DNA from: Candidatus Shapirobacteria bacterium
Lineage (GTDB): Bacteria > Patescibacteriota > Microgenomatia > UBA12405
Assembly: GCA_018062705.1 (NCBI GenBank)
Contig: JAGORQ010000003.1
Location: forward strand, 2,270 to 66,269
DNA length: 64,000 bases
Reading direction: 5' to 3'
Below are positions 1,041 to 47,878 of this stretch, piece after piece. How positions within the stretch are numbered: the stretch's first letter is position 1; each line of letters starts with the position of its first letter. The notes below the pieces were generated by a model, which saw only the letters and a program-made list of their open reading frames with translations, searched no databases and was not told the DNA's origin. The position numbers were made by a program, and so were the translations under genes.

Positions 1041-1538
1041 TTACCTCGCCGTAGCTTCCTCGCGAAGGCGGGCCATCATAAATAAATAATCTGACAATCT
1101 ATTGATATATATAAGTATGTTTGGATCTATTTGTTGGCTTTGGCTCAATGTCACCAATCGTCTCTCACATCGTCGACACACTGTCCTCACCCAATTAATT
1201 TCCCTCGCCTCTTTATTTTTAAAAATCAAAAAACCAGTGATTGGACCTAAGTTTTTTTCTAACTCTTGCGTTTCTTTCTCCAGATTGAAGATTGAAGTTT
1301 GAAGATTGAAGATCGAGCCATAGGCGATCACCCCCATTATTTCATAAAGGTCTTTCTGAATTTTACTTAGCACTGTGGACTTAGCACTTAGCACCCCCAA
1401 TGATGCCTGCAACTCGTCTAATGTTCCTACCGCCTCCAGTAGTGGCGAATCCTTCACCACTACTTTCCCGCTCCATCTACTCTTCCCATCATCGCCAGTT
1501 TTAGTAGTAATACTCATGAGCATTTCGAATAACCACAA
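1041..1538 (-). CDS. ATP:cob(I)alamin adenosyltransferase, PduO-type
   Basis: N-terminal ITTKTGDDG...LEAVGTLDEL motif typical of PduO-type adenosyltransferases; adjacent to B12-dependent nrdJ; carries in-frame heptamer insert (SIFNLQTSIFNL). Confidence 0.65.
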   Translation of the reverse strand: MWLFEMLMSITTKTGDDGKSRWSGKVVVKDSPLLEAVGTLDELQASLGVLSAKSTVLSKIQKDLYEIMGVIAYGSIFNLQTSIFNLEKETQELEKNLGPITGFLIFKNKEAREINWVRTVCRRCERRLVTLSQSQQIDPNILIYINRLSDYLFMMARLREEATAR

Positions 1539-4093
1539 AATGAATTACTGCATTTAAAACACCCTTCTTCGGCATACAATGGACTACCACAATCCGGGCA
1601 CGAGCTAAATTTACTTTCACTTTCTGCCTGTTTAGATCTAATTTCCGATAATATATTTTTCTGTACGGGCGCAATGCTTTGCGCCCCTACTTCAATTGGA
1701 TTTTTCTCCTCTTCAAACATTGCCAATTGTTCACCTCTCGATACTTCGAGTAATGACTTACCCACTGCATCAAACATGCTCAAAATTGCATTTGGCCCCG
1801 TCCCCACTCTCTGGCCACAAGATATTCCTACCAATTCGTCAGCCAACTCATCCAAACTGGCTCCATATTTTAATGCCAGTGATGCCAATCGACCCGTCAC
1901 TTCAGCCGAGCCGGCCATATAACCACCCGACTTCCCTAGAGTTACAAAAATTTCTACCGGACCATCCCCTTCCTCAAAAAATACTGAGGTATACACCTTC
2001 CCTACATCAGAAGTTTTTCTAAATCTCACCCCCCTGGCCGCCTCCGGCGTCTTCTTCTTGCTAGCCAACTTCAAACTTACTTCTAGTTTCTCGTTTCTCG
2101 TTTCTAGTTTCTTTTCTGTGACCGGTGCAATCACTTCTTTCTCTCTACTTCCACTTCGATAAATTGTGATCCCCTTGGTCCCTAGAGAATAGGCCAATCT
2201 ATAGGCAGTTCGCACATCTTCGACTGTCGCTTCTTTGGGAAAATTAATTGTTTTACTGACTGCATTATCTGTGAATTCCTGAAATGCGGCCTGAAGCTTT
2301 ACATGCCATTCCGGCGTAATCTCCAAAGCCGTCCTAAATATATTTTTTATATCATCTGGCAACTCCTCCATTCCTGACAGCTTACCTCCATTTTTGACAA
2401 TCTTGTCCAAGAGTTGATCATTATATAAATCACGTCTTTTCAATTCTTCTACAAACACTGGGTTCATCATATATAGAGTTTTGCCTTCCACCGTATTCTT
2501 TTGAAAACCCAAACTAAATGCCGGTTCCACTCCACTACTACAGTCGGCAATCATGCTGATTGTTCCGGTTGGAGCAATCGTTGTTAATGCCATATTGCGT
2601 GGTCGGTAATCAGTTCCGAGAAACACCGACACCTCCCAAGCGGGAAACACCCCCCTAGTTTTGGCCAATTCAACAGTTTCTTTTCTTGACTCTTCATTAA
2701 TAAATTTCATCAATTTTCTCGCCCATACAATTCCTTCTTCTGAATCGTAACGAACTCCCAATTTAAACAACATATCTGCAAATCCCATCACTCCCAACCC
2801 AATCCTACGGGTTTTCGACACCATATCCCGGATTTTTTGCACCGGAAACTCGTTTACCTCCACCACATTATCCAAAAAATGAATTGCCTCGTGTACCACC
2901 CTCGCCAACTCATCCCAGTCAATATCTCTTCGTATTATTCCAGTTTCTAGTTTCTCGTTTCTAGTTTCTGTTTCCAAATCTTTCTCTATAATAAATTTGG
3001 AAACATTTATCGACCCCAAATTACACGCATCATACGGCAACAATGGTTGCTCCCCACACGGATTGGTAGCTTCAATTCTACCCAACTTTGGCACTGGGTT
3101 ACTGTTAGCATCATTCATTCTGTCAATAAATACCAACCCCGGATCACCATATTGCCAAGCCAGTCGAGTTACCAAATTAAATACTTTGTAGGCGTTCAAC
3201 TTCATCACTACCTTACAATTTCGTGGATTTATCAATTCATAACCTTCACCCTCATTTGTGGCCTTAGCCCAATCATAAAGTTTTACAATCCATTGTTCAA
3301 TTGTCCTCAATCGCAAATCAACATCTCGCAATCCTTCTGCTTCCCTAATTTTTTCCACTACTTCTTCGGGAAAGGACTCGTCGCTCACAAATCTTTTATC
3401 TGGCTCAATTTGATCCATAAACTTGTTAGTTATCGCCAGAGAAATATTGAAGTTAGTCAACGAATATTCATCCAGTTTTACTACCGCAAATCTCAATACA
3501 TCTGGATGATCTACCGACAACATGCCCATATTTGCCCCCCTACGTACTCCACCTTGCTTGATCTGACTAGTTACATCATTGTAGGCCTGCATAAAACTTA
3601 CCGGCCCAACAGTCGTCCCACCCGATGTGGCAATATAGTCTCCACTTGGTCTCAATCGAGTGAACGAAAACCCAGTGCCTCCACCACTTTTATGGATTTT
3701 GGCCATATCCGTCATTGTTTCCAGTATCGATTCCATCGAATCATCAATTGGCAACACAAAACAAGCTGATAATTGTTGATGTTTTTTGCCAGCATTCACC
3801 AAACAAGGTGTGTTTGGAAAAAATTTTTGCTCGGCCATCATTTCATAAAACACTTTAGCCTGCTGCTCTATATTTGATTGAAGATTGAAGTTTGTAGATT
3901 GAAAATTCTCATCGCCCTTGGCTATGTTACTCGCCACTCTCCAAAAAATATCCTTGGCAGTTTCCACCACCTTCCCCGACTCGTCCTTCATTGCATATCT
4001 TGTTTCGGCAATATACTTTGCGTTTGGCGACAGCATCGGTTCTTTTAATTCAGCACCGTTAATCTGATTATTTCTTTGGTTTAAATCGTTCAT
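1514..4093 (-). CDS. nrdJ: ribonucleotide reductase, class II (adenosylcobalamin-dependent)
   Basis: Motifs LSACFVLPIDDS, NPCGEQPL..YDACNLGSIN, C-terminal CxxC zinc finger; downstream of nrdR. Confidence 0.9.
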   Translation of the reverse strand: MNDLNQRNNQINGAELKEPMLSPNAKYIAETRYAMKDESGKVVETAKDIFWRVASNIAKGDENFQSTNFNLQSNIEQQAKVFYEMMAEQKFFPNTPCLVNAGKKHQQLSACFVLPIDDSMESILETMTDMAKIHKSGGGTGFSFTRLRPSGDYIATSGGTTVGPVSFMQAYNDVTSQIKQGGVRRGANMGMLSVDHPDVLRFAVVKLDEYSLTNFNISLAITNKFMDQIEPDKRFVSDESFPEEVVEKIREAEGLRDVDLRLRTIEQWIVKLYDWAKATNEGEGYELINPRNCKVVMKLNAYKVFNLVTRLAWQYGDPGLVFIDRMNDANSNPVPKLGRIEATNPCGEQPLLPYDACNLGSINVSKFIIEKDLETETRNEKLETGIIRRDIDWDELARVVHEAIHFLDNVVEVNEFPVQKIRDMVSKTRRIGLGVMGFADMLFKLGVRYDSEEGIVWARKLMKFINEESRKETVELAKTRGVFPAWEVSVFLGTDYRPRNMALTTIAPTGTISMIADCSSGVEPAFSLGFQKNTVEGKTLYMMNPVFVEELKRRDLYNDQLLDKIVKNGGKLSGMEELPDDIKNIFRTALEITPEWHVKLQAAFQEFTDNAVSKTINFPKEATVEDVRTAYRLAYSLGTKGITIYRSGSREKEVIAPVTEKKLETRNEKLEVSLKLASKKKTPEAARGVRFRKTSDVGKVYTSVFFEEGDGPVEIFVTLGKSGGYMAGSAEVTGRLASLALKYGASLDELADELVGISCGQRVGTGPNAILSMFDAVGKSLLEVSRGEQLAMFEEEKNPIEVGAQSIAPVQKNILSEIRSKQAESESKFSSCPDCGSPLYAEEGCFKCSNSFCGYSKCS
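1663..1690. repeat. 28-bp palindromic element (family A) in-frame in nrdJ
   Basis: See 20530-20557. Confidence 0.8.
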
Positions 4094-4149
4094 ATAAAGC
4101 CCCGCGCAGCGGCATCTTTTTTAATTAGTAATTAGTAATTTGTAATTAG

Positions 4150-4593
4150 TCATTTTTTAAACTCCTCTACAATCTTCTTAAACTCCCCCACCTCTTTAAT
4201 ATCCAAATAAATCGTCGCAAACCGGATATACGCCACCGGGTCAGTTTTTTTCAAAATATCCATCACCAACTTCCCAATTTCTTTAGAAGGGATTTCCACA
4301 CTCTTCCAGTTAAGAAGCTTCATTTCTATTTCATCAATCAATTTTTGTCGTTCATCTGCCGTCACCCGCCACAAAGCCCTCTCAAAACATCTCTCTAGTT
4401 TTTCTCGTTGATAATCTTCAACTGATCCATCCTTTTTGACCACCTTCAATTCAATACTGCCCACCTTTTCATAGGTTGTGAACCGCTTGGCACACTTGAC
4501 ACACTCCCTTCGACGCCTAGTGGCCTTGCCTTCCATCGCATCCCGCGACTCAAGGACGTTGCTTTCATCAAAACCGCAATAAGGACATAACAT
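4150..4593 (-). CDS. nrdR: transcriptional repressor NrdR
   Basis: MLCPYCG...Zn-ribbon plus ATP-cone sequence; upstream of nrdJ. Confidence 0.9.
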   Translation of the reverse strand: MLCPYCGFDESNVLESRDAMEGKATRRRRECVKCAKRFTTYEKVGSIELKVVKKDGSVEDYQREKLERCFERALWRVTADERQKLIDEIEMKLLNWKSVEIPSKEIGKLVMDILKKTDPVAYIRFATIYLDIKEVGEFKKIVEEFKK

Positions 4594-4643
4594 TTTTGTC
4601 TGTCATTCCCGCGAAAGCGGGAATCTATATAAAAATTAACAAT

Positions 4644-4659
4644 CCACTATCCATAGTGG
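4644..4659. promoter_or_regulatory. NrdR-box-like palindrome CCACTATCCATAGTGG upstream of nrdR-nrdJ
   Basis: 16-bp palindrome resembling NrdR box consensus (acaCwAtATaTwGtgt), about 50 bp upstream of nrdR start. Confidence 0.5.
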
Positions 4660-4764
4660 ATGACTTCTATCTTATCCGCCACCCCAAGTGCCCGTCAACT
4701 ATTAACTAGTGTAACAATGTATCCCCAATCCCCCTCAAACACCCTGAACAATTTATTTATACAC

Positions 4765-4968
4765 TTACTCAAACTCCCTTTGCGCTTTCTCCAGCTCAAT
4801 CAACATTTTCTCATTAACTCCTTTTAATAAATTCTTTAAATACTCAAAATCAAGCACACCAAACTTCACCTTGCCTCTCACACTAATCAACCTATACTTT
4901 TCTTTTTTAACCTTACCTAAGGTAACTGCCAAATTACTTCTCAATTTTGTACTACTAACAATATTCAT
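4765..4968 (-). CDS. Phd/YefM-family antitoxin-like protein (apparently orphan)
   Basis: 67 aa, pattern S.T.LRSNL...V.....LISVRGK..FGVL.FEYL typical of Phd/YefM. Confidence 0.45.
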   Translation of the reverse strand: MNIVSSTKLRSNLAVTLGKVKKEKYRLISVRGKVKFGVLDFEYLKNLLKGVNEKMLIELEKAQREFE

Positions 4969-5035
4969 ATGTACATAACAAATGTACAGTTAATAATGGT
5001 CAACCCGTCCCGTAACAAGTCACAAGCAACACCAA

Positions 5036-5734
5036 CTATTCACTAATTTTATGTGCATCCCAATCAAAATCTCCCGTCTGCATTTTCACTTCAAAAGCAT
5101 TCTCTGGTTGTTTGAACCCTTTTAAATGTATTTCTACAACTGAAGGACTGTGCCTCTTCCTTGTACCATATACATTAGAAGTATCTACTCCTTGAGCAAC
5201 TTTTGCAGTAACAAAACTACACCCTCTAAAATTTATTTCATCAGCCGTACCACCAGCAAATCCTTTCGACAGAATTACCTGACCAGGATCACCACTAGCA
5301 TGTATCACCATCGGATTGTTAGTGAACGTATCTGCCACCATCACCCAATCTTCACCATTTCCCAACTTTGTCATTACTTCATCATTCAAAGGTGTTTGAT
5401 ACAAAACTCTAGCTGCCTCCTGATCGGTGTTACCCATATCACCACCACCTTTTCTCGTCATACCCATCTCTTTACCAACAAATAATGCTAAATCATATAC
5501 CGCTCTCGCATATCCACTAGTATCTCCAGCTTCTTGAGCATTGGTTATTAAACCATTTAATCTTTCATACTCTCCTACAATCGACACTTCTCCTATCCTG
5601 ATACCAGGCGAATCGGGCAAAGATATACCAGTTCTAATAGTTTTATCACCAAATCTGGCAATAAATTTCTGCTTATCAAAACCCTGAGCTGATGTATTAA
5701 CTGCGTCGTGCAAATCTCGAAGATTGTCAAACAT
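5036..5734 (-). CDS. hypothetical protein
   Basis: 232-aa ORF between nrdR and secE, no recognised motif. Confidence 0.45.
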   Translation of the reverse strand: MFDNLRDLHDAVNTSAQGFDKQKFIARFGDKTIRTGISLPDSPGIRIGEVSIVGEYERLNGLITNAQEAGDTSGYARAVYDLALFVGKEMGMTRKGGGDMGNTDQEAARVLYQTPLNDEVMTKLGNGEDWVMVADTFTNNPMVIHASGDPGQVILSKGFAGGTADEINFRGCSFVTAKVAQGVDTSNVYGTRKRHSPSVVEIHLKGFKQPENAFEVKMQTGDFDWDAHKISE

Positions 5735-5813
5735 TTATATTATTAACAATTATTACCCAAATTCTACCAAATTTATCGATTTATTAACAACGATATATAA
5801 GGTACAATACCTC

Positions 5814-6095
5814 ATGCGTCAAATCGTTAAGTTTCTCTCTGAAGTCAGAGCCGAATTTAAAAATATAACTTGGCCTTCTCGACAGTCTTTAATTCAGCTC
5901 ACATTTGTGGTAATATCAATCTCCATCATCATCTCCCTGATTTTAGGGGGTTTCGATTATATTTTTACTCAATCAATCGCCCTTTTGGGCCAAAATAAAC
6001 AAACCGTAGCACCAACTGTTATCAGCACTGCTACCCCCACCCCCGACAAATTTCCACCAATTCTTCCTACAACCAAGCCAACAATTAAAAAATAA
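5814..6095 (+). CDS. secE: preprotein translocase subunit SecE (track ORF starts 5724; ATG at 5814 more plausible)
   Basis: KFLSEVRAEFKNITWPSR + TM helix; immediately upstream of nusG; C-terminal Pro/Thr-rich extension. Confidence 0.7.
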   Translation: MRQIVKFLSEVRAEFKNITWPSRQSLIQLTFVVISISIIISLILGGFDYIFTQSIALLGQNKQTVAPTVISTATPTPDKFPPILPTTKPTIKK

Positions 6096-6096
6096 T

Positions 6097-6693
6097 ATGC
6101 CAAATAACTCTACTAAGACCAAAAACAAAGACTACTTATTCAAACTCTCTCCTCTCGAACCTTCCTTTGATGCTGCCTGGTATGTCCTCAATACCTATTC
6201 TGGTCACGAATACAAAGTTATTGATGCTCTAAAAATCCGTATCAAAACCATGGGTTTGGAAGATCAAATTTTTCAAGCCATTGTCCCAATTCAATCCAAA
6301 ATGGTTATCCGCCGTGGTCAAAAAGTCAAAACCCAAGAAAAAACTTTCCCCGGTTATGTCTTAATCCAAATGGCTCTCAATGATGATTCCTGGATCACTG
6401 TTCGCACCACCCAAGGTGTCACTGGCTTTATCGGTATTGAAAATCAGCCCACTCCCATTTCCCAGGCTGAAGTTGATGTCATTATCAAAGGTGTCGTTGA
6501 AGACAAGCCCAAATTCCAAACTCCGTTTGCTCAGGGCGATGTCGTCAAAATCACCAATGGTCCCTTTACCGACTACATTGGTACTATTGATACTATCGAT
6601 CAAGAACGTGGCCGTCTTCGTGTTCTCGTCTCTTTCTTCGAGCGCGAAACCCCAGTTGAACTTGATTTCTTGCAAGTAACCAAAGAGCTTTAA
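6097..6693 (+). CDS. nusG: transcription termination/antitermination factor NusG
   Basis: NGN and KOW regions (VVKITNGPFTDYIGTI), conserved synteny secE-nusG-rplK. Confidence 0.9.
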   Translation: MPNNSTKTKNKDYLFKLSPLEPSFDAAWYVLNTYSGHEYKVIDALKIRIKTMGLEDQIFQAIVPIQSKMVIRRGQKVKTQEKTFPGYVLIQMALNDDSWITVRTTQGVTGFIGIENQPTPISQAEVDVIIKGVVEDKPKFQTPFAQGDVVKITNGPFTDYIGTIDTIDQERGRLRVLVSFFERETPVELDFLQVTKEL

Positions 6694-6696
6694 TCT

Positions 6697-7053
6697 ATGC
6701 CCGGATTTAATCGAAAAAAAGGTGAGATTATCAATATATTCGCCACCTCTGTCGCTCAAAAAATTACTGAAGGCAATGCTTTTAGACGAACCGATCTTGG
6801 GGAAATATGGACAAGTACCTTCGCACCTCTTTGTGGTGAGGTCGGCAACGGCACACCACTAGCAATTTTGGAAACTAAAGTTCGAACTAAGTATTACGAG
6901 TTAAATAAACATAATCTAGCAACAAGGCGCACTCACGACGGATTTGTCACTTACGACCCAACAATAAGTGCCAGTCAAGTAGCTTTCGAACAGATACAGC
7001 ATAACTCCTCGGCAGAAAAAACCCAAGCTCGTCTAAAAAACAAACAAGGTTGA
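6697..7053 (+). CDS. hypothetical protein inserted between nusG and rplK
   Basis: 118-aa ORF starting 3 nt after nusG stop; no known motif; atypical position. Confidence 0.3.
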   Translation: MPGFNRKKGEIINIFATSVAQKITEGNAFRRTDLGEIWTSTFAPLCGEVGNGTPLAILETKVRTKYYELNKHNLATRRTHDGFVTYDPTISASQVAFEQIQHNSSAEKTQARLKNKQG

Positions 7054-7157
7054 TTCGATTCCTAGACTTTTACCGCAATTTATTAGATAATACCAACATT
7101 CCTCAAGCTCTGTCGTGAACCAGAGGCTTCACTTTAGGACTATAAATTTTTCAAACT

Positions 7158-7583
7158 ATGGCAAAAAAAATAAAAACAGTTGTTAAGCTCGCTCTCCAGG
7201 CCGGCATGGCCAATCCCGCTCCTCCAGTTGGTACTGCTCTCGGTCCTCAAGGTATCAAAATCATGGATTTCTGCAACGAATTCAACGAACGCACCAAAGA
7301 CATGAAAGGTTCTTTGATTCCTGCTTTAATCACTATTTACGAGGATAGATCTTTTGATTTCATCATCAAAAAACCACCAGTTTCTGACATGATCAAAAAA
7401 ATTACCGGTATCACCAAAGGTTCTGGTACCACCGGTCGTGAGAAAATCGGCATAATTACCCAAGACCAAATCACCAAGGTCGCTACCGACAAAATGTCCG
7501 ATTTAAATACCCAAGACATTGAGGCCGCCAAGCGCATGGTCACCGGCACCGCCCGCTCCATGGGTTTTGAGATTGTTGGTTAA
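7158..7583 (+). CDS. rplK: 50S ribosomal protein L11
   Basis: MAKKI...GMANPAPPVGTALGPQGI... canonical L11. Confidence 0.95.
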   Translation: MAKKIKTVVKLALQAGMANPAPPVGTALGPQGIKIMDFCNEFNERTKDMKGSLIPALITIYEDRSFDFIIKKPPVSDMIKKITGITKGSGTTGREKIGIITQDQITKVATDKMSDLNTQDIEAAKRMVTGTARSMGFEIVG

Positions 7584-7600
7584 TCAATTTAAAAATCCTT

Positions 7601-7891
7601 ATGGAAACAACCAAGGGATTTAGAGAAAACTACAAACACCTCTTTGAGGGCTCCCAAACAAGTTTACCTGAACGATCGAATAATTTAGAGTGTCATTTTA
7701 CCCCTGGAGGTGTCACTACTTGCTGTGAAAATGCCGGTCATGAATACCTCGTAGAGCCAATGCCTCAAGGCAGGATGGGGCTAACTAAATTACCAACAAT
7801 CATCGGCTTTAAAGGGACATGTGTTCCTGGTTGCAGTTCCTGTCGAGTAACCGGCAATGAAAATATGCAAGATAAGTTTTTTAGAGATTAA
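7601..7891 (+). CDS. small Cys-containing hypothetical protein
   Basis: 96-aa ORF with CC, CxxGC, CSSC motifs between rplK and rplA. Confidence 0.3.
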   Translation: METTKGFRENYKHLFEGSQTSLPERSNNLECHFTPGGVTTCCENAGHEYLVEPMPQGRMGLTKLPTIIGFKGTCVPGCSSCRVTGNENMQDKFFRD

Positions 7892-7899
7892 CTTTCCAT

Positions 7900-8154
7900 A
7901 TGCCAAAAGGCTTGCCAGAACTAAATCCAGCTACTGAAACAAGATATTCACACCTTACAGTTGTCGAGGTTGACGAAGTCACCGATGGGACAGCTAAGTT
8001 TAATAGCTACGGTTTGGGTTGTGACCTGTTGGGTGAAGGTTGTCGAAGGCTAAGTCATGTAGTTCCTATAACAACCGCCGACGGTTTAATCGTACCAATT
8101 GCCCGTTTTTCGTCATGCAAAAAATGTATTGAATACGGAATAAACAGGAAATAA
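7900..8154 (+). CDS. small Cys-containing hypothetical protein
   Basis: 84-aa ORF with GCDLLGEGC and CKKC motifs, follows previous ORF by 8 nt. Confidence 0.3.
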   Translation: MPKGLPELNPATETRYSHLTVVEVDEVTDGTAKFNSYGLGCDLLGEGCRRLSHVVPITTADGLIVPIARFSSCKKCIEYGINRK

Positions 8155-8201
8155 CCAACGGTTATCTGTTATAATTACCCACTTATAATTTTCCAAATCA
8201 T

Positions 8202-8963
8202 ATGAGCAAAACCTCACAAGAAAACAAAAAGAAAAAGCTTGTTGTGGAAGATCAAGTAATTGATCACAAGGCTTCAGAATCCGTCGAAGAAACTGGAGTA
8301 AATCCCGAAATCGTTAATGAGGAGACCGTTTCCGCCGAAGGCGGATCCGCCTCTGGCGGAAAAAGAACTGCCAAAGTTCGCGGCAAAAAATATCAAACCG
8401 CCAAGAAAAAGGTTGACGTAGCCAAATTTTACCCCATCAAAGACGCTGCCAAATTGGTCAAAGAAACTTCTTTCTCCAAATTTGAAGGCAAAATCGAAGC
8501 TCACATCACTGTGACCGAAGAGGGTAACTTAGGTGAAATTGTCTTCCCCCACCTCGAAACAGCCAGCAAAAAAATCGTCATCTTAAACGATGCTATTTTG
8601 GCTGAAATCAAAGACGGTAAAGTCGATTTTGATATTCTTATCGCCACTCCCGCCACCATGCCCAAGCTTTTACCTTTTGCCAAGGTTCTTGGTCCCAAAG
8701 GTTTAATGCCCAATCCCAAGAGTGGCACCTTAACCGACAAACCCGAAGAAGCTGTCAAAAAGCTGTCAGTAGCCAAAACCATGATCAAAACCGAGAAAAA
8801 AGCTCCGGTTGTTCATATCATTGTTGGAAAAGTTTCCCAACCGGTCGAAGAGCTCAGTGCCAATGTGGCTGAACTCATCAAGGTTGTCAAACCAATTCGT
8901 ATCAAAAAATTGGCTCTTTGTGCCACCATGGGCCCATCAGTCAAAGTCGAGGTCCTAAAATAA
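8202..8963 (+). CDS. rplA: 50S ribosomal protein L1 (with about 65-aa Lys/Glu-rich N-terminal extension)
   Basis: Conserved L1 core from about residue 70 (FEGKIEAHITV...KVLGPKGLMPNPKSGT). Confidence 0.9.
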   Translation: MSKTSQENKKKKLVVEDQVIDHKASESVEETGVNPEIVNEETVSAEGGSASGGKRTAKVRGKKYQTAKKKVDVAKFYPIKDAAKLVKETSFSKFEGKIEAHITVTEEGNLGEIVFPHLETASKKIVILNDAILAEIKDGKVDFDILIATPATMPKLLPFAKVLGPKGLMPNPKSGTLTDKPEEAVKKLSVAKTMIKTEKKAPVVHIIVGKVSQPVEELSANVAELIKVVKPIRIKKLALCATMGPSVKVEVLK

Positions 8964-8966
8964 CAA

Positions 8967-8990
8967 GTCATTCCTGCGAAGGCAGGAATC
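8967..8990. repeat. GC hairpin element GTCATTCCTGCGAAGGCAGGAATC (family B copy)
   Basis: Near-identical copies at 4602-4625 and 45557-45580, variant at 1056-1075. Confidence 0.7.
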
Positions 8991-9006
8991 TATTTAAATT
9001 TTCAAT

Positions 9007-9034
9007 CCCCCTCCCCCGAGGGGGATTTTTATTT
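9007..9034 (+). terminator. rho-independent terminator after rplA
   Basis: CCCCCTC-cccc-GAGGGGG hairpin followed by T-run. Confidence 0.7.
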
Positions 9035-9037
9035 CCC

Positions 9038-9086
9038 TTGACACCCCAACATAGTTATGTTATCATATACATATTCGTATATGATA
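9038..9086 (+). promoter_or_regulatory. sigma70-like promoter (TTGACA-N17-TATCAT) overlapping 10-bp palindrome TATCATATAC-N6-GTATATGATA (putative AbiEi operator)
   Basis: Exact -35, 17-nt spacer, near-consensus -10; perfect inverted repeat spans -10 and start region. Confidence 0.5.
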
Positions 9087-9620
9087 AACAAACTATCCAT
9101 TTTACTTCAGCAACCACAAAAGATCTTCCACACCGCCGACCTTCGCATTTTGTGGGGTATTTACAACCAGAACACTCTCCGTCAAACTGTTAGCCGTTAC
9201 ACCCAAAAAAAGTCTCTTTTTCGCATCTACAAAGGTGTTTACAGCACTATTGATCCCCAAAAACTCGACACTACCGAACTAGGCTACCGACTCTTTAATC
9301 GCTACTGTTATCTCACCACCGAGACTGTTTTGTCCCAAAACGGTCTAATCAATCATTCCCCTACCAAAATTACTTTTGTTTCCAGTCTTTCTCAAAATAT
9401 TATTCTCAATCAACACACTTTTCTCAGCCGTCAGCTCAAATCACAATATCTTCATAACACCGCAGGCATTACCCAACTACCAAACGGTGTCCTCATCGCC
9501 TCTTCCGCCCGAGCTGTTGCCGATCTACTATATTTCCAGCCCAACTTCCATTTTGATGCCGGTAGTATTATTAATTGGGACCAGGTTAAACAAATTCAAC
9601 AGGAGGTTTACTCACAATGA
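9057..9620 (+). CDS. AbiEi-family antitoxin / transcriptional regulator (alternative start at 9081)
   Basis: about 185 aa, ETVLSQNGLI motif like AbiEi; 4-bp overlap with downstream AbiEii-like gene. Confidence 0.5.
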   Translation: MLSYTYSYMINKLSILLQQPQKIFHTADLRILWGIYNQNTLRQTVSRYTQKKSLFRIYKGVYSTIDPQKLDTTELGYRLFNRYCYLTTETVLSQNGLINHSPTKITFVSSLSQNIILNQHTFLSRQLKSQYLHNTAGITQLPNGVLIASSARAVADLLYFQPNFHFDAGSIINWDQVKQIQQEVYSQ

Positions 9621-20296: not shown

Positions 20297-21904
20297 TTAT
20301 CCGCGACACTTTTTTACAAACTCCACAAATATCGGATGTGGAGCCAACGGTCGGCTCTTATACTCCGGATGAAACTGTGTCCCCACAAAAAAGGGATGAT
20401 TTTTTAATTCAATTGCCTCCACCAATTTTCCATCTGGACTGGTGCCACTAATCACCATCCCCGCTTTTTCCAACTGCTCTCTAAATTCATTGTTCACCTC
20501 ATATCGATGACGATGCCTTTCTTGCACCTGTACGGGCGCAATGCATTGCGCCCCTACATCCATATATATATATTCCAAAATACTGCCTTTTTTAACTTTA
20601 CATGGCCAACCCCCCAATCTAATTGTCCCACCATATTGATGCGCTTCCAAATATTTTTTTTGATCCGGCATCACATGCACTACCGGATATTTCGTCTTCG
20701 GATCCACCTCTTCCGAATTAGCATTTTTCAATCCCAGCACGTTTCGACTAAATTCAATCACTGCCATTTGCATTCCAAAACAAAGACCCAAATAAGGAAT
20801 CTTGTTCTCCCTAGCAATCCGCACCGTTTCAATAATTCCCTCCGTCCCCCGGCTCCCCCATCCTTGTGGCACCACAATGCCACTATATTTTTTCAACATT
20901 TCTTCATTAACTTCTTCAGAGCAAATCGAATCAATCTGTAAATTTACACTATTCGCAATTCCCCCATGCTTCAACGCCTCCATTACCGACACATACACAT
21001 CAGCATGCTTCCCTCCCCCATGATTCACATATTTTCCCACCAACGCTATTCGTACGGGCGCAATGCTTTGCGCCCCTACAATTAATTTTTTCCACTCTCC
21101 TAAATTAGCCTTTCTATTTTTTATTTTAAAATGCTTAAATATTTTTTTTAATATTTTTTGTTTTTCCAAAACTAACGGTACTTCATAAATTGATTTACAG
21201 TCTGCATCCTCAAAAATTGCATCATTTTCCAAAAAACATCTTTTGGCCAAAGTCTCCCTCCTTGGTTCATCCAGTTCAATTTCGCTTCGGGTTATCAAAA
21301 TATCCGGAATAATACCCGTTGACCTCAATTCGGCAATCGCCTGCTGAGTTGGTTTAGTTTTTAGCTCACCCACATTTTTCAAAAACGGCACGTAAGTCAC
21401 CATCACATACATCGCCTTGCGCTCCCGCCCCACCTCTCGTGCCGCATACAAAAATGGCAAGTTTTCTATATCCCCAGTGCTTCCCCCAATCTCTACGACG
21501 ACAAAATCAAAACCACTTTCTAATTCATAAAATCTCCTCTTCACCTCATTTGGCACATCCGGAATCATTTCCACATCTCGTCCCTCATATTTAAACGCCC
21601 GCTCGTTATTAATAATCGTCTGATAAATTTTCCCAGAGGTAATATTATTGTCTTTGGAAAAATTTTGATTCAAAAATCTCTCGTAATTTCCCAAATCCTG
21701 GTCAATTTCCCCGCCATCTTCGGTCACAAAAGTTTCTCCGTGTTCCTGCGGTCGCATTGTCCCGGCATCCACATTCAAATACGGATCAATTTTTATCATG
21801 TTCACCTTAAAACCAGATGCTTTCAAAAGCATTCCTATAGATGATGCCACAATTCCTTTACCCAAACCACTCACTACCCCCCCAATTACAAAAATATATT
21901 TCAT
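20297..21904 (-). CDS. pyrG: CTP synthase
   Basis: N-terminal MKYIFVIGGVVSGLGKG and C-terminal GATase domain; contains two in-frame 28-bp palindromic inserts. Confidence 0.95.
   Translation of the reverse strand: MKYIFVIGGVVSGLGKGIVASSIGMLLKASGFKVNMIKIDPYLNVDAGTMRPQEHGETFVTEDGGEIDQDLGNYERFLNQNFSKDNNITSGKIYQTIINNERAFKYEGRDVEMIPDVPNEVKRRFYELESGFDFVVVEIGGSTGDIENLPFLYAAREVGRERKAMYVMVTYVPFLKNVGELKTKPTQQAIAELRSTGIIPDILITRSEIELDEPRRETLAKRCFLENDAIFEDADCKSIYEVPLVLEKQKILKKIFKHFKIKNRKANLGEWKKLIVGAQSIAPVRIALVGKYVNHGGGKHADVYVSVMEALKHGGIANSVNLQIDSICSEEVNEEMLKKYSGIVVPQGWGSRGTEGIIETVRIARENKIPYLGLCFGMQMAVIEFSRNVLGLKNANSEEVDPKTKYPVVHVMPDQKKYLEAHQYGGTIRLGGWPCKVKKGSILEYIYMDVGAQCIAPVQVQERHRHRYEVNNEFREQLEKAGMVISGTSPDGKLVEAIELKNHPFFVGTQFHPEYKSRPLAPHPIFVEFVKKCRG
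20530..20557. repeat. 28-bp palindromic element GTACGGGCGCAATGCATTGCGCCCCTAC (family A) in-frame in pyrG
   Basis: Copies at 1663-1690 (nrdJ) and 21052-21079 (pyrG); all encode VGAQ[S/C]IAPV. Confidence 0.8.
21052..21079. repeat. 28-bp palindromic element (family A) in-frame in pyrG
   Basis: See 20530-20557. Confidence 0.8.
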
Positions 21905-26690: not shown

Positions 26691-26702
26691 GGCACTATTT
26701 TA

Positions 26703-26998
26703 CACCAAACATCTTTTTTCCTGTCTTTACGGATTACGTATTACGGTTTACGGATTACGTCTTTTTGACACGTTGACCCACTAGTATCCGACATGCTTTA
26801 CCACCAAACATCTTTTTTCCTTTTTTTCGGTCATTAGTAATTAGTCATTAGTAATTAGTAATTTTGTTCCATTGACCCACAAGTATCCGACATGCTTTGT
26901 CCCCAAACATCTTTTTTCCTGTCTTTTCCTCATTTGTCATTAGACATTAGTCATTTGTCATTTTGTTCCATTGACCCACTAGTATCCCTTATGCTTTA
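26703..26998. repeat. three tandem about 99-bp repeats in divergent intergenic region; conserved flanks with variable heptamer-repeat cores
   Basis: Units 26703-26800, 26801-26899, 26900-26998 share CAAACATCTTTTTTCCT and TTGACCCACTAGTATCCGACATGCTTT. Confidence 0.8.
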
Positions 26999-37386: not shown

Positions 37387-37431
37387 ATATACTCTAGGAT
37401 TAAATACATTAATTTAATGATATTTATCGCT

Positions 37432-37486
37432 AAATTAGTAATTAGTAATTAGTAATTGGTAATTAGTAATTAGTAATTAGTAATTA
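37432..37486. repeat. (TAATTAG)n heptanucleotide tandem array, about 8 units
   Basis: aaattagtaattagtaattagtaattggtaattagtaattagtaattagtaatt. Confidence 0.9.
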
Positions 37487-37507
37487 GTAATTAAAGTATA
37501 ATCAAGT

Positions 37508-38593
37508 ATGTCCCTCTACGACGACCTACGCTTAAAACTCCCCCAACTCGACATTCGCCAAAACTCTCCCCTCGCCCCCTACACCACTCTTCGCATTGGC
37601 GGTCCTGCTGAATGTTTGGTTGTGGTCACCAAACAATCCGAACTTTTTTCCATTCTAAAATTTATTTCCCAACAAATTGTAGATTGTAAATTGAAGATTG
37701 AAGATTTTCGTATTCTCGGCAAAGGCTCCGATCTGGTAATTTCCGACTCTGGCCTACCCGGTCTAACCATTATCAATCGTGCCTCCCAGATCCATATTCA
37801 CCCCAAAGTTGAAATGATAAATGGTTCAACGAAAAATGATAAATTTTCCCCAATCAGCACTCAGCGGAATGAAAATGAACCAGAAAAATATCTTGATTTT
37901 GGGAAAATCGATTATGACGAATCAGGACTACCCACTCAACTAGTTACTCTCCAAGCCGGTACACCACTTCCCTTTGCCATCAACCAATTACTCAACGAAG
38001 GTCTTACTGGGCTCCAATGGTTTGCCTATATTCCCGGTACTGTCGGCGGTGCTGTTTATCAAAACATTCATGGTGGCAAATACCATTTTTCCGATTATAT
38101 CGACTCTATAAAAACTTTTAATCTCAAAACTGGTAAAACTCAACTTTTCAAAAAAACCGATTTAAATTGGCACTACGAAACCAGTTTTTTTCAATCAAAC
38201 TACCATTTAATAATACTTTCTGCCACACTTCGACTTTTTCGGGGCGACGCCAACCTGGCTCGACAAGTAACCACCGCTTGGATCGCTCAAAAAACCAAGG
38301 TTCAACCCATGAATTCCGCCGGCTCAGTTTTTGCCAACCCGTCACCCGAAATTTGTCAAAAAATTTGGGGCGAACAAAAATCAGCCGGTTGGATCATCGA
38401 CCACGAGTTGGGCTGGAAGGGTAAAGCTATCGGCGGTGCTCAAATTAGCCCGCTTCACTCCAATTTTATTGTCAACACTGGTACCGCCACCGCAAAAGAC
38501 TACCACTCCCTAGTCAAACAAATCATCGCCGAAGTTAAAACTCGTTTTGACTTTGAACTTATCCCTGAAATAAAGTTTTTAGGACAAATTTAG
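37508..38593 (+). CDS. murB: UDP-N-acetylenolpyruvoylglucosamine reductase
   Basis: FAD-binding N-terminus and MurB C-terminal collinearity; in-frame heptamer insert IVDCKLKIEDF. Confidence 0.8.
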   Translation: MSLYDDLRLKLPQLDIRQNSPLAPYTTLRIGGPAECLVVVTKQSELFSILKFISQQIVDCKLKIEDFRILGKGSDLVISDSGLPGLTIINRASQIHIHPKVEMINGSTKNDKFSPISTQRNENEPEKYLDFGKIDYDESGLPTQLVTLQAGTPLPFAINQLLNEGLTGLQWFAYIPGTVGGAVYQNIHGGKYHFSDYIDSIKTFNLKTGKTQLFKKTDLNWHYETSFFQSNYHLIILSATLRLFRGDANLARQVTTAWIAQKTKVQPMNSAGSVFANPSPEICQKIWGEQKSAGWIIDHELGWKGKAIGGAQISPLHSNFIVNTGTATAKDYHSLVKQIIAEVKTRFDFELIPEIKFLGQI

Positions 38594-42089: not shown

Positions 42090-42096
42090 AAATAAG

Positions 42097-42899: not shown

Positions 42900-42976
42900 C
42901 GGGGATTGGCGCAATTGGCTAGCGCGCACGGTTCGGGATCGTGAGGTTGCTGGTTCGAATCCAGTATCCCCGACCA
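42900..42976 (+). tRNA. tRNA-Pro (anticodon CGG), CCA encoded
   Basis: Manual cloverleaf: acceptor CGGGGAT/ATCCCCG, D-stem GCGC/GCGC, anticodon loop TTCGGGA, T-arm GCTGG-TTCGAAT-CCAGT. Confidence 0.85.
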
Positions 42977-43100
42977 GTCGGATACTGGATGAGAAGTTTA
43001 TCCTGAGCGAAGTCGAAGGAAATCCAGTATCCCCGACCAGTCGGATACTGGATGAGAAGTTTATCCTGAGCGAAGTCGAAGGAAATCCAGTATCCCCGAC
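42961..43100 (+). repeat. 2.2 tandem copies of a 63-bp unit beginning with the tRNA-Pro 3' end (CCAGTATCCCCGACCA...)
   Basis: Units 42961-43023, 43024-43086, partial 43087-43100 identical. Confidence 0.9.
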
Positions 43101-43254
43101 AAAAATAATTAATAATTAACAATTAATAATTACTAATTAAGAACAACTGTCCATTCTCTGATGATTGAGCAATCCAATCATCACAAGTTTTTTGTATTGA
43201 TAGTTTTCAACTACTAATTATTAATTCGTAATTAGTAATTAGTAGTTAATGTTC

Positions 43255-43326
43255 GTCCCTATAGTTCAATGGATAGAACGGAGGTTTCCTAAACCTTAAA
43301 TGGCAGTTCGATTCTGCCTGGGGATA
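43255..43326 (+). tRNA. tRNA-Arg (anticodon CCT), CCA not encoded
   Basis: Manual cloverleaf: acceptor GTCCCTA/TGGGGAT, D-stem GTTC/GAAC, anticodon loop TTCCTAA, T-arm GGCAG-TTCGATT-CTGCC. Confidence 0.8.
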
Positions 43327-43480
43327 CATTTACAGAATCTAATTGCCCCAGGTACGACCTGTTTCGCGAGTTCACGAGCGAAGTTCCTGGTGGGGATACT
43401 TTTTACAGTTCGACTTGTTTCGACGAACCATTTCATTTTTTTTGTGAGTCGAAGTTCTGCCTGAGGATACTTTTTTAACA
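43314..43480 (+). repeat. three spaced (about 71 bp) copies of the tRNA-Arg 3' end (CTGCCTGGGGATAC / TCCTGGTGGGGATAC / CTGCCTGAGGATAC + T-run)
   Basis: Degenerate direct repeats of T-arm/acceptor 3' half downstream of the tRNA. Confidence 0.7.
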
Positions 43481-43978
43481 AACCCTCTAGTTTCACGGAC
43501 AAGTTTTTCTCCTCAATTTCCTTTTACCGCATAATCTATAGATGAATTGTCTGATTAACCGCACATATCTGCACAATTTCCGCAACATTTTTTCCTTATC
43601 TAATAAAAAAATTATAAGTCAATTAAGATATCATTAACCGCATTTAAAAGAAAATTTTCTTATACCTGTATATATCTTTTATACTACTAATATGGTCAGT
43701 ATAACCGTACACATGACATTATGACAGTTATTTCCTAGTTACATTTTTTCACACTCGATTATTTTTCCGCAATTTTTATATGCCTTCACCCACTATCTTT
43801 ATGAAGTGAATCAATTAGAATCAATGTATTACATCAAGCTACGACGAATTATTAGACATTTTTAATGTTTAATATCAACTTGTCCCACGCGGTTAATTAA
43901 ACATTTTATGCGTATTTAGACATAAAATATTCTACTAGAAAATGTTTATCACTCACACAGCTTAATTGCTAAAACTCC

Positions 43979-45202
43979 CTAAACTAACTTCAAACTATAC
44001 AGTTTATTAACCGACACTAAGTCTTTTGCCAAACCGACTACCCCACTTATAGCCACCTTGTTTATCTTCGCCAATTCCTCCTCAATATCCACCAGTTTAT
44101 TTTCCAGCAACAATTTCTCACCCAGATAACTTGTCCAAAAATCAGTTCGGTCCATTGCCAGTTTCGTTCTGCCTCTCAAGTACTCCTTGGCTCGGGATAT
44201 CTCATCACTGGTCAAATTGTTACCAATCGTCAATATCTCTTGTTTGACTAAATCCATTGCTTCATCAATTTTCTCTTTAACCACTCCAGATTGGACCGCC
44301 CAAACACCTGCTTCAGTAATGCTCTCACTGACACTATAAACATAGTAAGCCAACCCTCTATCTTCTCTAATCTTTTGAAATAGCCGTGAAGAAGAATTAC
44401 CTGAAAGAACTACATCAAGAATTCTAAATTCATACTTTCTTGGATCAACAGAGCTAATACCAGGTATTCCCATGACAAAATGCCCTTGTTCATTTTTACG
44501 CCCAATTTTTCTGTCTAATTCTGTTGCCCAAGTTATTTCAATCCGTGGTGGAGTATGATCTTGACTGTTCCATTTACTAAAATAATCTTCCACCAATCCC
44601 AACTCATCACCTTGCAAATCACCAGCCATCACTATCACCACCTTATTTGGATCATAATGTCTTCGCCAATAATCAACAACGTCTTTTTGTTCATATCTCA
44701 AGACCTCCTCGGTTTCACCTGATATATTCCAACAACCAATTCTGGATCCTCCCCAGATAAATTTCGTAAAATCTGATGCCAATCCAGACATTGGGTTGTC
44801 TTGATACATCTTGATCTCTTCGCTAATCACCACCTTTTCTTTTAACAACTCTTTTTTATCAAAAGTTGAATAGATCAAAATATCACTAAGTAATTCAATC
44901 GCCCATTCACGGTGTTCTTTTACCGTTGTAACATAATATGAAGTTGTTTCTTGTCCAGTACCTGCGTTTGAGACAGCTCCTTTTGCGTCAATTTCTTTAT
45001 TTATTATCTCAGCTGTCGGCCTTTTCAGAGTGCCTTTAAACATCATGTGTTCCACAAAATGACTCAAACCATGCTCTCCCAACTCCTCATACTTCGAACC
45101 AACACCCACCAACACCTCAACTGTAATTGCCTTAAGACCGGTCAGTGGTTTACAAACTACCCGTATACCATTGGCTAATTTATTAATCCTTATTTTATTC
45201 AT
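43979..45202 (-). CDS. M16-family zinc peptidase
   Basis: HFVEHMMFKGT (HxxEH) motif. Confidence 0.8.
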   Translation of the reverse strand: MNKIRINKLANGIRVVCKPLTGLKAITVEVLVGVGSKYEELGEHGLSHFVEHMMFKGTLKRPTAEIINKEIDAKGAVSNAGTGQETTSYYVTTVKEHREWAIELLSDILIYSTFDKKELLKEKVVISEEIKMYQDNPMSGLASDFTKFIWGGSRIGCWNISGETEEVLRYEQKDVVDYWRRHYDPNKVVIVMAGDLQGDELGLVEDYFSKWNSQDHTPPRIEITWATELDRKIGRKNEQGHFVMGIPGISSVDPRKYEFRILDVVLSGNSSSRLFQKIREDRGLAYYVYSVSESITEAGVWAVQSGVVKEKIDEAMDLVKQEILTIGNNLTSDEISRAKEYLRGRTKLAMDRTDFWTSYLGEKLLLENKLVDIEEELAKINKVAISGVVGLAKDLVSVNKLYSLKLV

Positions 45203-45289
45203 CTATCCATCCATTATAACCTATCACTCCACCCACTAACAGCCAACAACCCACTCTGCCAATCACCAGGCTTACAAGTAGATCCCTAA

Positions 45290-47878
45290 CTATCTAACTA
45301 CAAAGTTGACCATCCTGCCTGGCACATAAATTTCCTTAACCACCTCTTTTCCCTCCAACCACTGCGTCATCTTCGGCAACTCCTTTGCCAGTTTTATTAT
45401 TTCTTCTTGGCTTTTAACTCGTAACTCGTCACTGTTAACTGATAACTGTTCTCTGACTTTTCCATTCACCGCCACCATAATGGTAACTGACTCCTCCGCC
45501 AGATACTTCTCATCCGCCACCGGCCACTCTTGATCATGAATCGATGAAAAAATCTCGTCATTCCCGCGAAAGCGGGAATCCATTCTTTGCCACATTTCTT
45601 CCGCCGTGTACGGTGCCATTGGTGCCATTAATTTCAAAAAAGTCTCTAAATCATTTCTCGAAACCATTTCTTTGTTATCTTCAAAATCATTTAATAATTT
45701 CATCAATTTTGCCACTACGGTATTGTATCCAAAACTTGCCATATCTTCGGTAATACTTTTTATGGCTTTATTAATGATTATCAGTAGTTCTTTATTACTG
45801 TCAGCAGACTTATTATTTAATTGCTCATTAGTAATTCGTAATTCGTAATTCGTAATTGATTTTTCCACTCTATCCAAAAATCGTTTCACCCCCATGAGAG
45901 TCTTCTCATTCCACGCCATCGTTCCATCAAATGGTCCCATAAACATCAAATACATCCTCACTACATCGACCCCGTACTTATCCGCTACCACCTCTGGCAC
46001 CACCACGTTCCCCTTCGACTTACTCATCCGATTATTGTCTGGTCCCAAAATTACCCCATGGGAAATTCTTTTAAAATATGGCTCGGGTAACTCTTTGGGT
46101 ACTGCGCCAATGTCGTGCAGAAACTGGTAAATAAACCTCGAATACAAAAGATGCAGTGTGTTATGTTCATCGCCACCTATGTAGACATCCACCGGACCCC
46201 AATATTTAATCATCTTTTGGGATGCCAGCTCTTTATTGTTGTGCGGATCCATATATCTTAAAAAGTACCAGTCACTCCCCGCCCAATTTGGCATCGTATC
46301 AGTTTCCCGCACTGCATCACCGTCACAAACTGGACATTTGCAATTCACAAACTCTGGAATTTTTGACAATGGTGACTTGCCATCATCCGTCGGCTCGTAA
46401 GCCTCCACCTCTGGCAACACAATCGGCAACTGTTCTTCCGGCACCGGAATCCACCCCACATTTTTCAATAAATTATTTTTTTCGTCTTCATTTTGGATTT
46501 TAGAATTTAGAATTTGGGATTTTTGATTTTCTGCACATTTATTACAGAAAATCATGGGTATCGGCTCACCCCAATAATGCTGTCTAGAAAAAATCCAATC
46601 TCTTAAGTGATATGACACCACTCTCTTCCCCCAACCCTTTTCTTCAAAATAATCCATCGTCTTCTGCATCGCCTTCGTAAAGTCCATTCCATTTAAAAAA
46701 TCAGAATTCACCATTACACCCTTATCACCCGAATGAACTTGAAAACATTCTTTTTCAACATCCCTCTCTTCTCCATCAACTCCATCTACCACTTTAATAA
46801 TTGGGATTCCAAACTTTTTGGCAAAATCCCAATCTCTCTGGTCATGACCTGGACAACCTTGAACTGCGCCAGTCCCAAAAGTCGCCAACACAAAATCAGT
46901 TATCCAAATTGGAATCTCTTTACCATCAACATGATTTATTGCATAAAGCCCAGAAAACACTCCTGTCTTTTCTTTTCCTAATTCAGTTCTTTCAATCTCG
47001 CTCTTTCGCCTTGCTACTGATATATACTTTTTTATTTCTTCAATCTGTTTCTGATCAACACCAAACTTCCCCGACACGATATCCTGCACAAACTTGTGTT
47101 CTGGTGCCACTACCAAAAAAGTCGCCCCAAAATTTACCGGTGTTGTTGTAAAAATAGCCAGTTTCTCACTCGTGCCCTTAACTTGGAAATCGATATTTAT
47201 CCCCTCTTTTCTCCCAATCCAGTTTATTTGTGCTTGTTTCACTTTCTCAATAAAATCCGTCTTCGCAAGTCCCGACACCAATTTATCTGCATAATCAGTT
47301 ATTTTTACTATCCACTGGCTGATGTTTCTTCTCGATACTTCAGAATGACACCGCTCGCACTTCCCATCGACAACTTCTTCATTGGCCAAACCAATTTTAC
47401 AACTTGGACACCAGTTAATCGGCATCTCCTCTTTGTAGGCCAAACCCTTTTTAAATAATTGAACAAAAATCCACTGTGTCCATTTATAATAGTCTGGGCT
47501 AGTCGTATTTACCTCCCTCTCCCAATCAAACGAAAACGCCAACCGTTTCATCTGACTTCTAAACATATCGGTATTTTCCTTGGTCACTTCTTGCGGTTTC
47601 CGCTTCATCTTTATCGCATAGTTTTCCGTTGGCAAACCAAAGGCATCCCAACCCATCGGAAACATCACCTCATACCCCTGCATTCGCTTAAATCTGGCAT
47701 AGACATCTCCACCAGTAAACGAAAAAGCATGACCTACATGGAGACCCGATCCTGAGGGATAAGGGAACTCATTTAGCACATAAAACTTCCCTTTGCTAGC
47801 TACTCTTTTACTATTTTTTTTGCCCCACTCAGTAATCCATTTTTTCTCGATTTCTAAAAACTTTTTATCTTCGTTCAT
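45290..47878 (-). CDS. leuS: leucine--tRNA ligase
   Basis: HVGHAFSF (HIGH) and KMSKSKGN motifs, editing domain; three in-frame heptamer inserts and one in-frame family-B hairpin (SRFRGNDE). Confidence 0.95.
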   Translation of the reverse strand: MNEDKKFLEIEKKWITEWGKKNSKRVASKGKFYVLNEFPYPSGSGLHVGHAFSFTGGDVYARFKRMQGYEVMFPMGWDAFGLPTENYAIKMKRKPQEVTKENTDMFRSQMKRLAFSFDWEREVNTTSPDYYKWTQWIFVQLFKKGLAYKEEMPINWCPSCKIGLANEEVVDGKCERCHSEVSRRNISQWIVKITDYADKLVSGLAKTDFIEKVKQAQINWIGRKEGINIDFQVKGTSEKLAIFTTTPVNFGATFLVVAPEHKFVQDIVSGKFGVDQKQIEEIKKYISVARRKSEIERTELGKEKTGVFSGLYAINHVDGKEIPIWITDFVLATFGTGAVQGCPGHDQRDWDFAKKFGIPIIKVVDGVDGEERDVEKECFQVHSGDKGVMVNSDFLNGMDFTKAMQKTMDYFEEKGWGKRVVSYHLRDWIFSRQHYWGEPIPMIFCNKCAENQKSQILNSKIQNEDEKNNLLKNVGWIPVPEEQLPIVLPEVEAYEPTDDGKSPLSKIPEFVNCKCPVCDGDAVRETDTMPNWAGSDWYFLRYMDPHNNKELASQKMIKYWGPVDVYIGGDEHNTLHLLYSRFIYQFLHDIGAVPKELPEPYFKRISHGVILGPDNNRMSKSKGNVVVPEVVADKYGVDVVRMYLMFMGPFDGTMAWNEKTLMGVKRFLDRVEKSITNYELRITNEQLNNKSADSNKELLIIINKAIKSITEDMASFGYNTVVAKLMKLLNDFEDNKEMVSRNDLETFLKLMAPMAPYTAEEMWQRMDSRFRGNDEIFSSIHDQEWPVADEKYLAEESVTIMVAVNGKVREQLSVNSDELRVKSQEEIIKLAKELPKMTQWLEGKEVVKEIYVPGRMVNFVVR

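Follow-up and report, generated by a model that had tools for sequence, protein, structure and literature searches.

Hairpin repeats in a Candidatus Shapirobacteria genome, one of them in frame in leuS, are probably copies of the repeat of the single-stranded DNA nuclease SsnA

In Neisseria, the Ssn system modulates natural transformation; its gene ssnA encodes a single-domain GIY-YIG protein and has repeats clustered around it, in an NTS-ssnA-NTS layout that has been likened to an insertion sequence (Chenal et al., Nat Commun 2025, PMC11893778). The repeat is the 28-nt Neisseria Transformation Sequence (NTS; CGTCATTCCCGCGMAVGCGGGAATCYRG), which contains dRS3, and it has a degenerate counterpart, the Ssn-related motif (SRM), with the pattern HGTCWYN(0-2)YYVSBRHN(0-5)WNVSBRGN(0-2)RNCYNB (PMC11893778). 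SsnA binds the hairpin solely as single-stranded DNA (ssDNA) and in one orientation, and cleaves a few nucleotides upstream of it; binding depends most critically on the C directly 3' of the palindrome and cleavage most on the three bases 5' of it, and neither binding nor cutting of RNA or double-stranded DNA (dsDNA) is reported (PMC11893778). Here we compare with this system three short hairpin repeats in a 64-kb stretch of contig JAGORQ010000003.1 (hereafter the window) from a Candidatus Shapirobacteria bacterium, one of them inside the leucyl-tRNA synthetase gene leuS. Shapirobacteria are a Microgenomates lineage of the Candidate Phyla Radiation (CPR).

The repeat family is real, as the original prediction had it, with three copies at 4602-4625, 8967-8990 and 45557-45580, all on the + strand, and 0 matches in 100 dinucleotide shuffles. 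The 23-mer TCATTCCCGCGAAAGCGGGAATC is present exactly at 4603-4625 and 45558-45580 (+ strand), and 8968-8990 (+) differs from it at three positions, two of which are compensatory stem changes (C:G to T:A) and one of which lies in the loop. Folded as DNA, each copy forms an 8-bp stem with a 4-nt loop at -7.7 to -9.0 kcal/mol (z -4.2 to -5.4); an Rfam scan gave no match at the hairpins. The copies, in the extents used for comparison, are:

4601-4628, + strand: candidate NTS/SRM copy 1, TGTCATTCCCGCGAAAGCGGGAATCTAT; intergenic, exact core, SRM pattern match, DNA hairpin of -9.0 kcal/mol
8967-8990, + strand: candidate NTS/SRM copy 2, variant GTCATTCCTGCGAAGGCAGGAATC; three mismatches, two of them compensatory, DNA hairpin of -7.7 kcal/mol
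45556-45583, + strand: candidate NTS/SRM copy 3, CGTCATTCCCGCGAAAGCGGGAATCCAT; inside leuS, exact core, SRM pattern match

The motif resembles dRS3 of Neisseria, as the literature confirms. Mismatches to the 28-nt NTS consensus number one in the leuS copy (45556-45583), two in copy 1 (4601-4628) and four in copy 2 (8967-8990); copies 1 and 3 match the SRM pattern (shuffles give 0.06), and all three keep the GTC 5' of the palindrome and the C right after it. Common to the window repeats and the NTS/SRM-SsnA system, then, are the same 24-28-nt sequence (1-2 mismatches), the hairpin, and the directional flanks, GTC on the 5' side and C on the 3' side. The dRS3 repeat, described in Neisseria, is defined as the palindrome alone (ATTCCC-N8-GGGAAT), which copies 1 and 3 fit exactly but copy 2 (ATTCCT...AGGAAT) does not, and the Neisseria intergenic mosaic element (NIME) arrays and prophage junctions of dRS3 are not present here. 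Judging from sequence, we consider it highly likely that these hairpins are copies of the known NTS/SRM repeat of the ssDNA nuclease SsnA (PMC11893778), and not a new element family.

The same core is widespread. A scan of viral contigs with ATTCCYGCGAARGCRGGAAT returned at least 120 loci on contigs of 36-72% GC; the flanks differ between the two sides and are strongly conserved, with GTC 5' of the core in 137 of 146 copies and CCAG 3' of it. As a negative control, 1.36 Mb of leuS loci from 80 other species, mostly Firmicutes and including one Shapirobacteria locus, contained no copy. Separately, we observed that in many genomes (viral loci L002, L003, L009, L066, L073, L095 and others) the left half alone, GTCATTCCCGC, recurs in direct orientation about 20 nt ahead of a complete NTS, once or several times; no such half copies lie upstream of the NTS copies in the window.

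GIY-YIG open reading frames (ORFs) abut the motif in six viral and four metagenome loci among those fetched, and in metagenome locus L206 the GIY-YIG gene is flanked by the motif on both sides. When a low-GC GIY-YIG sequence was used as query, the fourth-best protein-database match was MBP9817765.1 (P0124) from Candidatus Shapirobacteria, a 'GIY-YIG nuclease family protein' of 100 aa (Pfam PF01541) with 54% identity to a GIY-YIG gene adjoining a canonical NTS in a contig of 66% GC. The LeuS protein of the window is MBP9817428.1, 337 accession numbers from MBP9817765.1, and both were found in run SRR11088367. The ssnA-like locus (L318) resembles the window in composition (GC 0.396, GC skew 0.30), and its GIY-YIG gene (3442-3744) is flanked by five NTS-type hairpins (3339-3362, 3751-3774, 3800-3823, 3885-3908 and 3933-3956) arranged as convergent pairs; the three ATTCC-type copies among them end in CTATATAAA or CTATACAAA, a CTATAYAAA-type tail like that of window copies 1 and 2. 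From the neighbouring accessions, the common sequencing run and the matching composition we conclude that a putative SsnA-like gene belongs to the metagenome-assembled genome (MAG) of the window, on a different contig of 36,493 bp. As in the NTS/SRM-SsnA system, the repeats cluster around a single-domain GIY-YIG gene of about 100 aa in the same genome.

The strand composition of these contigs is itself unusual. The + strand of the window has 8,791 G and 16,525 C, a GC skew of -0.31 that holds in every 4-kb bin and across genes of both orientations; other Shapirobacteria loci (L318, L319, L121, L201, L202) have absolute skews of 0.26-0.34. These values far exceed the usual replication skew and, being common to the Shapirobacteria loci, look like a lineage trait. 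All six ATTCC-type copies (window and L318) lie on the C-rich strand. A general rule that sense copies of the NTS avoid the G-rich strand was rejected, with 44 versus 42 copies in the metagenome loci and a viral trend that is weak and confounded.

The repeats depart in form from the NTS as described. Two of the three window copies (copies 1 and 2) have the 3' tail CTAT(A/T)TAAA instead of CYRG, and a metagenome scan for the core plus a CTATWTAAA tail returned 115 contigs (the complete listing; mean GC 0.40), far above chance for eight extra specified bases; the CCTGC/GCAGG variant seen in copy 2 is also common among other low-GC contigs. Copies here are, moreover, often paired with an inverted hairpin of variable stem sequence. 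An NTS followed 9-25 nt on by an inverted hairpin ending GG(A/G)ATGAC was found for 59 of 95 non-redundant metagenome copies, compared with 56 of 2300 control windows, and the stems of these partner hairpins covary around a TCAAG loop. An inverted hairpin of this kind also accompanies copy 1:

4642-4664, - strand: inverted partner of copy 1, GTCATCCACTATGGATAGTGGAT; GTC head, 9-bp stem and 2-nt loop, forming a convergent doublet with copy 1

GTCAT is followed by a perfect hairpin at 4 of 94 sites in the window, namely the three NTS copies and 4642-4664. Possibly, as an alternative reading alone, the palindrome at 4644-4659 is an NrdR operator, with 12 of 16 positions matching the published NrdR-box consensus; neither a second box at the usual spacing nor a similar site elsewhere was found. 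We read it as a doublet partner because of its GTC head and its ATCC...GGAT architecture. As a separate observation, an exact 63-nt tandem duplication at 42958-43083, starting inside the 3' end of tRNA-Pro (42900-42976), contains CTGAGCGAAGTCGAAGG, which also adjoins NTS doublets in metagenome loci L210, L248 and L260.

Several points weigh against assigning the window hairpins to the Ssn system. Copy 2 fails the strict SRM pattern, although solely through its compensated T:A pair, and the partner at 4642-4664 does not match the pattern and has T, not C, after the palindrome. Within the 64-kb window, neither ssnA nor any GIY-YIG gene was detected by a phmmer probe, a regular expression or a hidden Markov model (HMM) of seven GIY-YIG sequences (E <= 1), and MBP9817765.1 gave no PDB or NCBIfam match. 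The same-MAG link rests on accessions, run and composition, not on a closed genome; related Shapirobacteria also show extreme GC skew, so that skew alone is no proof that the two contigs are one genome.

Copy 3 lies within a coding sequence:

45290-47878, - strand: leuS, 862 aa, host of copy 3; PDB LeuS matches, E 6e-202

On the coding (-) strand copy 3 reads (M)DSRFRGND(E), with DSRFRGND in frame as residues D767-D774, and the family is thus both intergenic (upstream of nrdR and after rplA) and in frame, as had been predicted. The insert site is a loop that varies in length, bounded by ...EEMW and S[IV]H..WP; the stretch from EE[LM]W to S[IV]H..WP ranges from about 5 to 20 residues across 60 close orthologs, in all of which DSRFRGND is absent. 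The predicted lineage specificity was borne out by the ortholog alignment: peptides derivable from the motif occur in none of the 119 other LeuS relatives listed, and Thermus thermophilus LeuS has alignment gaps opposite the insert, in the interval from ...AEELW to the conserved WP. The close relatives are all Shapirobacteria or Microgenomates, and in the nearest of them (GCA_016188545.1, 71% identity) the loop is unrelated and no copy of the motif lies within 15 kb. Without the eight codons the loop would have 7 residues, the commonest short length among the orthologs. In an AlphaFold model of LeuS (mean predicted local distance difference test score, pLDDT, 81.9) the insert occupies the C-terminal end of helix 756-768 and part of the coil 769-779, where the 10-residue pLDDT blocks are 73 and 61. 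The copy 3 DNA recurs in an independent Logan assembly of SRR11088367 and is therefore not peculiar to one assembler. The leuS copy is a genuine lineage-specific in-frame insertion in a tolerant loop. The motif is stop-free in five of six reading frames, and the copy may survive because it adds exactly eight codons, in a stop-free frame, to what is probably a surface loop of freely varying length.

We also note that in other Microgenomates LeuS proteins (P0016, P0022, P0025, P0011, P0021, P0012 and others) the same loop contains the recurring peptides [CF]AKA[ST]EG, LHQG[SAF][GT]GEP and VRDENDP. Copies of other repeat families, read in frame, may account for these peptides, and the loop would then be a hot spot.

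Low-GC metagenome loci contain several further NTS-type copies inside long ORFs, which Pfam domains spanning or bracketing the insert identify as real genes (positions in residues):

L301, MurC: doublet VIPAKAGIYLNRFRIKSGMT at 235-255, within Mur_ligase_M (116-304)
L253, MiaA: insert at 165-185, within IPPT (38-276)
L276, Wzy-type O-antigen ligase: insert at about 206, within Wzy_C (178-323)
L255, P-type ATPase: insert at about 518, between the Cation_ATPase and Hydrolase domains
L221, CarB: insert at about 145, in a linker between domains
L253, Nth: insert at about 191, after HhH-GPD

Patescibacteria (Microgenomates, Beckwithbacteria, Pacebacteria) make up nearly all of the named relatives of MurC; the insert is missing from the closest ortholog (78% identity) and present in another. 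A literature search found no paper on the encoded peptides (VIPAKAGI, RFRGND and others). Of the three window copies one lies in frame within the essential leuS, compared with 2% of NTS located within genes in N. meningitidis, and the main text of the paper describing the Ssn system mentions neither the CPR nor in-frame copies (PMC11893778). What these data add to the published description is a host in the CPR, a variant tail, the arrangement in doublets and repeated colonisation of coding sequence.

The closest precedent for the in-frame habit is provided by the Rickettsia palindromic elements (RPEs), selfish palindromes inserted in frame into unrelated housekeeping genes and tolerated as an extra peptide (PMC10969869). 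That habit is the sole resemblance. RPEs are about 100-150 bp long, Rickettsia-specific, encode a conserved peptide and have no known associated enzyme, whereas the repeats here, with units of 24 nt, or 60 nt when they form doublets, are tied to SsnA and hosted by a CPR bacterium. On the evidence of these loci we give roughly even weight to the proposition that, in the CPR, hairpins associated with SsnA form a mini-element that is actively spreading, both as 24-nt singlets and as inverted doublets of about 60 nt, that repeatedly colonises essential genes in frame (LeuS here; MurC, MiaA, Nth, CarB and P-type ATPase in the metagenome contigs) and that would be the counterpart of the RPEs.

The repeat is a directional semi-palindrome of about 28 nt, consisting of GTC, then ATTCCCGC-loop-GCGGGAAT, then C; by analogy with Neisseria, it would when single-stranded fold into a hairpin that SsnA binds and cuts a few bases 5' of the stem. 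The Shapirobacteria ssnA candidate on the other contig sits in a repeat cluster (NTS-ssnA-NTS, resembling an insertion sequence), and the three window copies would be dispersed, non-autonomous members: a convergent doublet upstream of nrdR, a neighbour of the rplA terminator and a 24-nt singlet in leuS. We infer that this SsnA may bind and cut the window copies, and that the copies may multiply through transposition-like events or recombination associated with SsnA. The function in the cell could, as in Neisseria, be to restrict or modulate incoming or exposed ssDNA; otherwise the repeats may be simply selfish.

An alternative explanation is that the hairpins act mainly on RNA, as intrinsic terminators, attenuators or mRNA-stabilising stem-loops with GNRA tetraloops. 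The features that bear on it are:

4150-4593, - strand: nrdR (Pfam Zn_ribbon_NrdR and ATP-cone)
8202-8963, + strand: rplA (Pfam Ribosomal_L1)
9004-9027, + strand: second hairpin after copy 2, AATCCCCCTCCCCCGAGGGGGATT then TTTTTATTT; best terminator-like site in 4400-9300

Copy 1 is upstream of nrdR, 9 nt from the start codon and on the other strand, and nrdR heads a gene row with class II (B12-dependent) ribonucleotide reductase (RNR) and a PduO-type adenosyltransferase; copy 2 begins 4 nt past the rplA stop codon. The stems are stable and these positions, in the nrdR leader region and the rplA 3' untranslated region, would suit an RNA role, as would the many phage-contig copies that lie 5-25 nt upstream of a ribosome-binding site and ATG; the reverse (-, untranscribed) strand of copy 2 was also flagged as weakly terminator-like. 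However, no copy is followed by a T-run on the transcribed strand, a terminator within leuS would be harmful, and rplA has its own canonical terminator 14 nt beyond copy 2, at 9004-9027, where 10 pairs are followed by a T-run. This terminator has an ATCC...GGAT core and no GTC/GAC end, and stands at the position where a doublet partner would stand. The DNA orientation is the same in all copies even though the genes run both ways, such that the loop would be GAAA in one mRNA and UUUC in the nrdR and leuS mRNAs, and it is sequence and asymmetric flanks, not just pairing, that are conserved across genomes of 30-72% GC. Fixed orientation together with conserved sequence and flanks fits a protein recognition site on DNA, and SsnA is reported without RNA or dsDNA binding or cutting (PMC11893778). 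We therefore regard an RNA role as improbable; the terminator function suggested by the original prediction is not supported, and its GNRA framing is probably beside the point.

Less probable still is that these are REP (repetitive extragenic palindromic) or REPIN elements mobilised by a RAYT (IS200/IS605-type Y1) transposase. They share with REP/REPIN elements the form of short extragenic hairpins, often as inverted doublets, and a single enzyme gene flanked by its own repeats, but the head is GTCA with no GTAG, the recurrent neighbour encodes a GIY-YIG nuclease instead of an HUH Y1 transposase, and this core, unlike REP sequences, which normally differ from species to species, is conserved across phyla, from Neisseria to the CPR. 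A separate GTAG-headed hairpin family does occur in the window and could be taken to favour RAYT activity: CTGTACGGGCGCAATGCWTTGCGCCCCTAC, whose reverse complement starts with GTAG, is present at 1661-1696 in nrdJ and at 20528-20563 and 21050-21085 in ORF 20297-21904. It reads in frame as VGAQ[SC]IAPV[QR] in ribonucleotide reductase and in the other long ORF. It is equally unlikely that the hairpins serve an integrase or an IS110-type recombinase as attachment or target sites, in the way that dRS3 serves filamentous prophages of Neisseria: the core does hold the pattern ATTCCC-N8-GGGAAT of that phage recombinase target (PMC11893778), but no integrase, IS110 gene or inserted element adjoins any window copy, and the conserved asymmetric flanks and the ssnA linkage would be left unexplained.

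Assignment to the NTS/SRM repeat would place a seemingly new repeat in a system whose biochemistry is known, with a nuclease that cuts ssDNA site-specifically and the hairpin that it recognises, and would extend the Ssn system to the CPR. Members of the CPR are thought to depend on DNA uptake. The hairpins of these organisms are not solely intergenic, since they add segments of 8-20 residues to essential enzymes, and the coding-region copies bear on gene calling and on the reading of 'CPR-specific' protein insertions and offer natural evidence of repeat movement. With a T:A stem variant and a CTATWTAAA tail, the SsnA/NTS pair of the CPR may offer a new specificity for the ssDNA-cutting tools that were put forward along with the Neisseria system (PMC11893778). 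If the repeats are indeed a spreading mini-element, close orthologs that differ in the insert would give its boundaries to the base, and the mobility of NTS-ssnA-NTS would be directly testable.

The original prediction had counted a related variant at 1056-1075 alongside the three copies:

1041-1538, - strand: PduO-type adenosyltransferase gene (Pfam Cob_adeno_trans, domain end at residue 158 of 165)
1056-1075, + strand: possible decayed copy, CTTCCTCGCGAAGGCGGGCC, at the 3' end of this gene; shares the 12-mer CGCGAAGGCGGG with the family

The 12-mer (0 expected) and the orientation are those of the family. The segment has one extra left-arm base, lacks the outer GTCATTCC/GGAATC arms, does not fit the SRM pattern and folds no better than shuffles (z about 0). 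Some of its codons belong to the conserved end of the Cob_adeno_trans domain. At best it is a possible decayed copy, and not a member of the family. Just downstream of the nrdR/RNR/adenosyltransferase row, an AdoCbl-II riboswitch at 545-623 (- strand) scores 41.3 bits (gathering score 36.5).

Other repeats in the window were also noted. Ribosomal protein L1 (8202-8963) has an N-terminal extension of about 60-125 residues ahead of the Pfam-matched part; within it, SAEGGSASGGK resembles a further repeat peptide read in frame. Tandem arrays of 7-nt units (AATTAGT/AATTCGT, TTTCTAG, GATTGAA, TCTTAMA, AATTTAG) are numerous and mostly intergenic (4117, 23538, 26812, 37413-37511, 39055, 40834, 43094-43266, 45806-45876 and others). 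Some are in frame, giving ITNYELRITNEQ at 668-691 and QKSQILNSKIQN at 452-463 in leuS, and EKKLETRNEKLEVSL and others in nrdJ. At 26698-26998 a 99-nt unit is present in three tandem copies with 81-90% identity, and a very long + strand ORF (more than 1,270 codons), in which repeats of 160-230 nt occur, extends from about 60400 to 64000 and on beyond the window.

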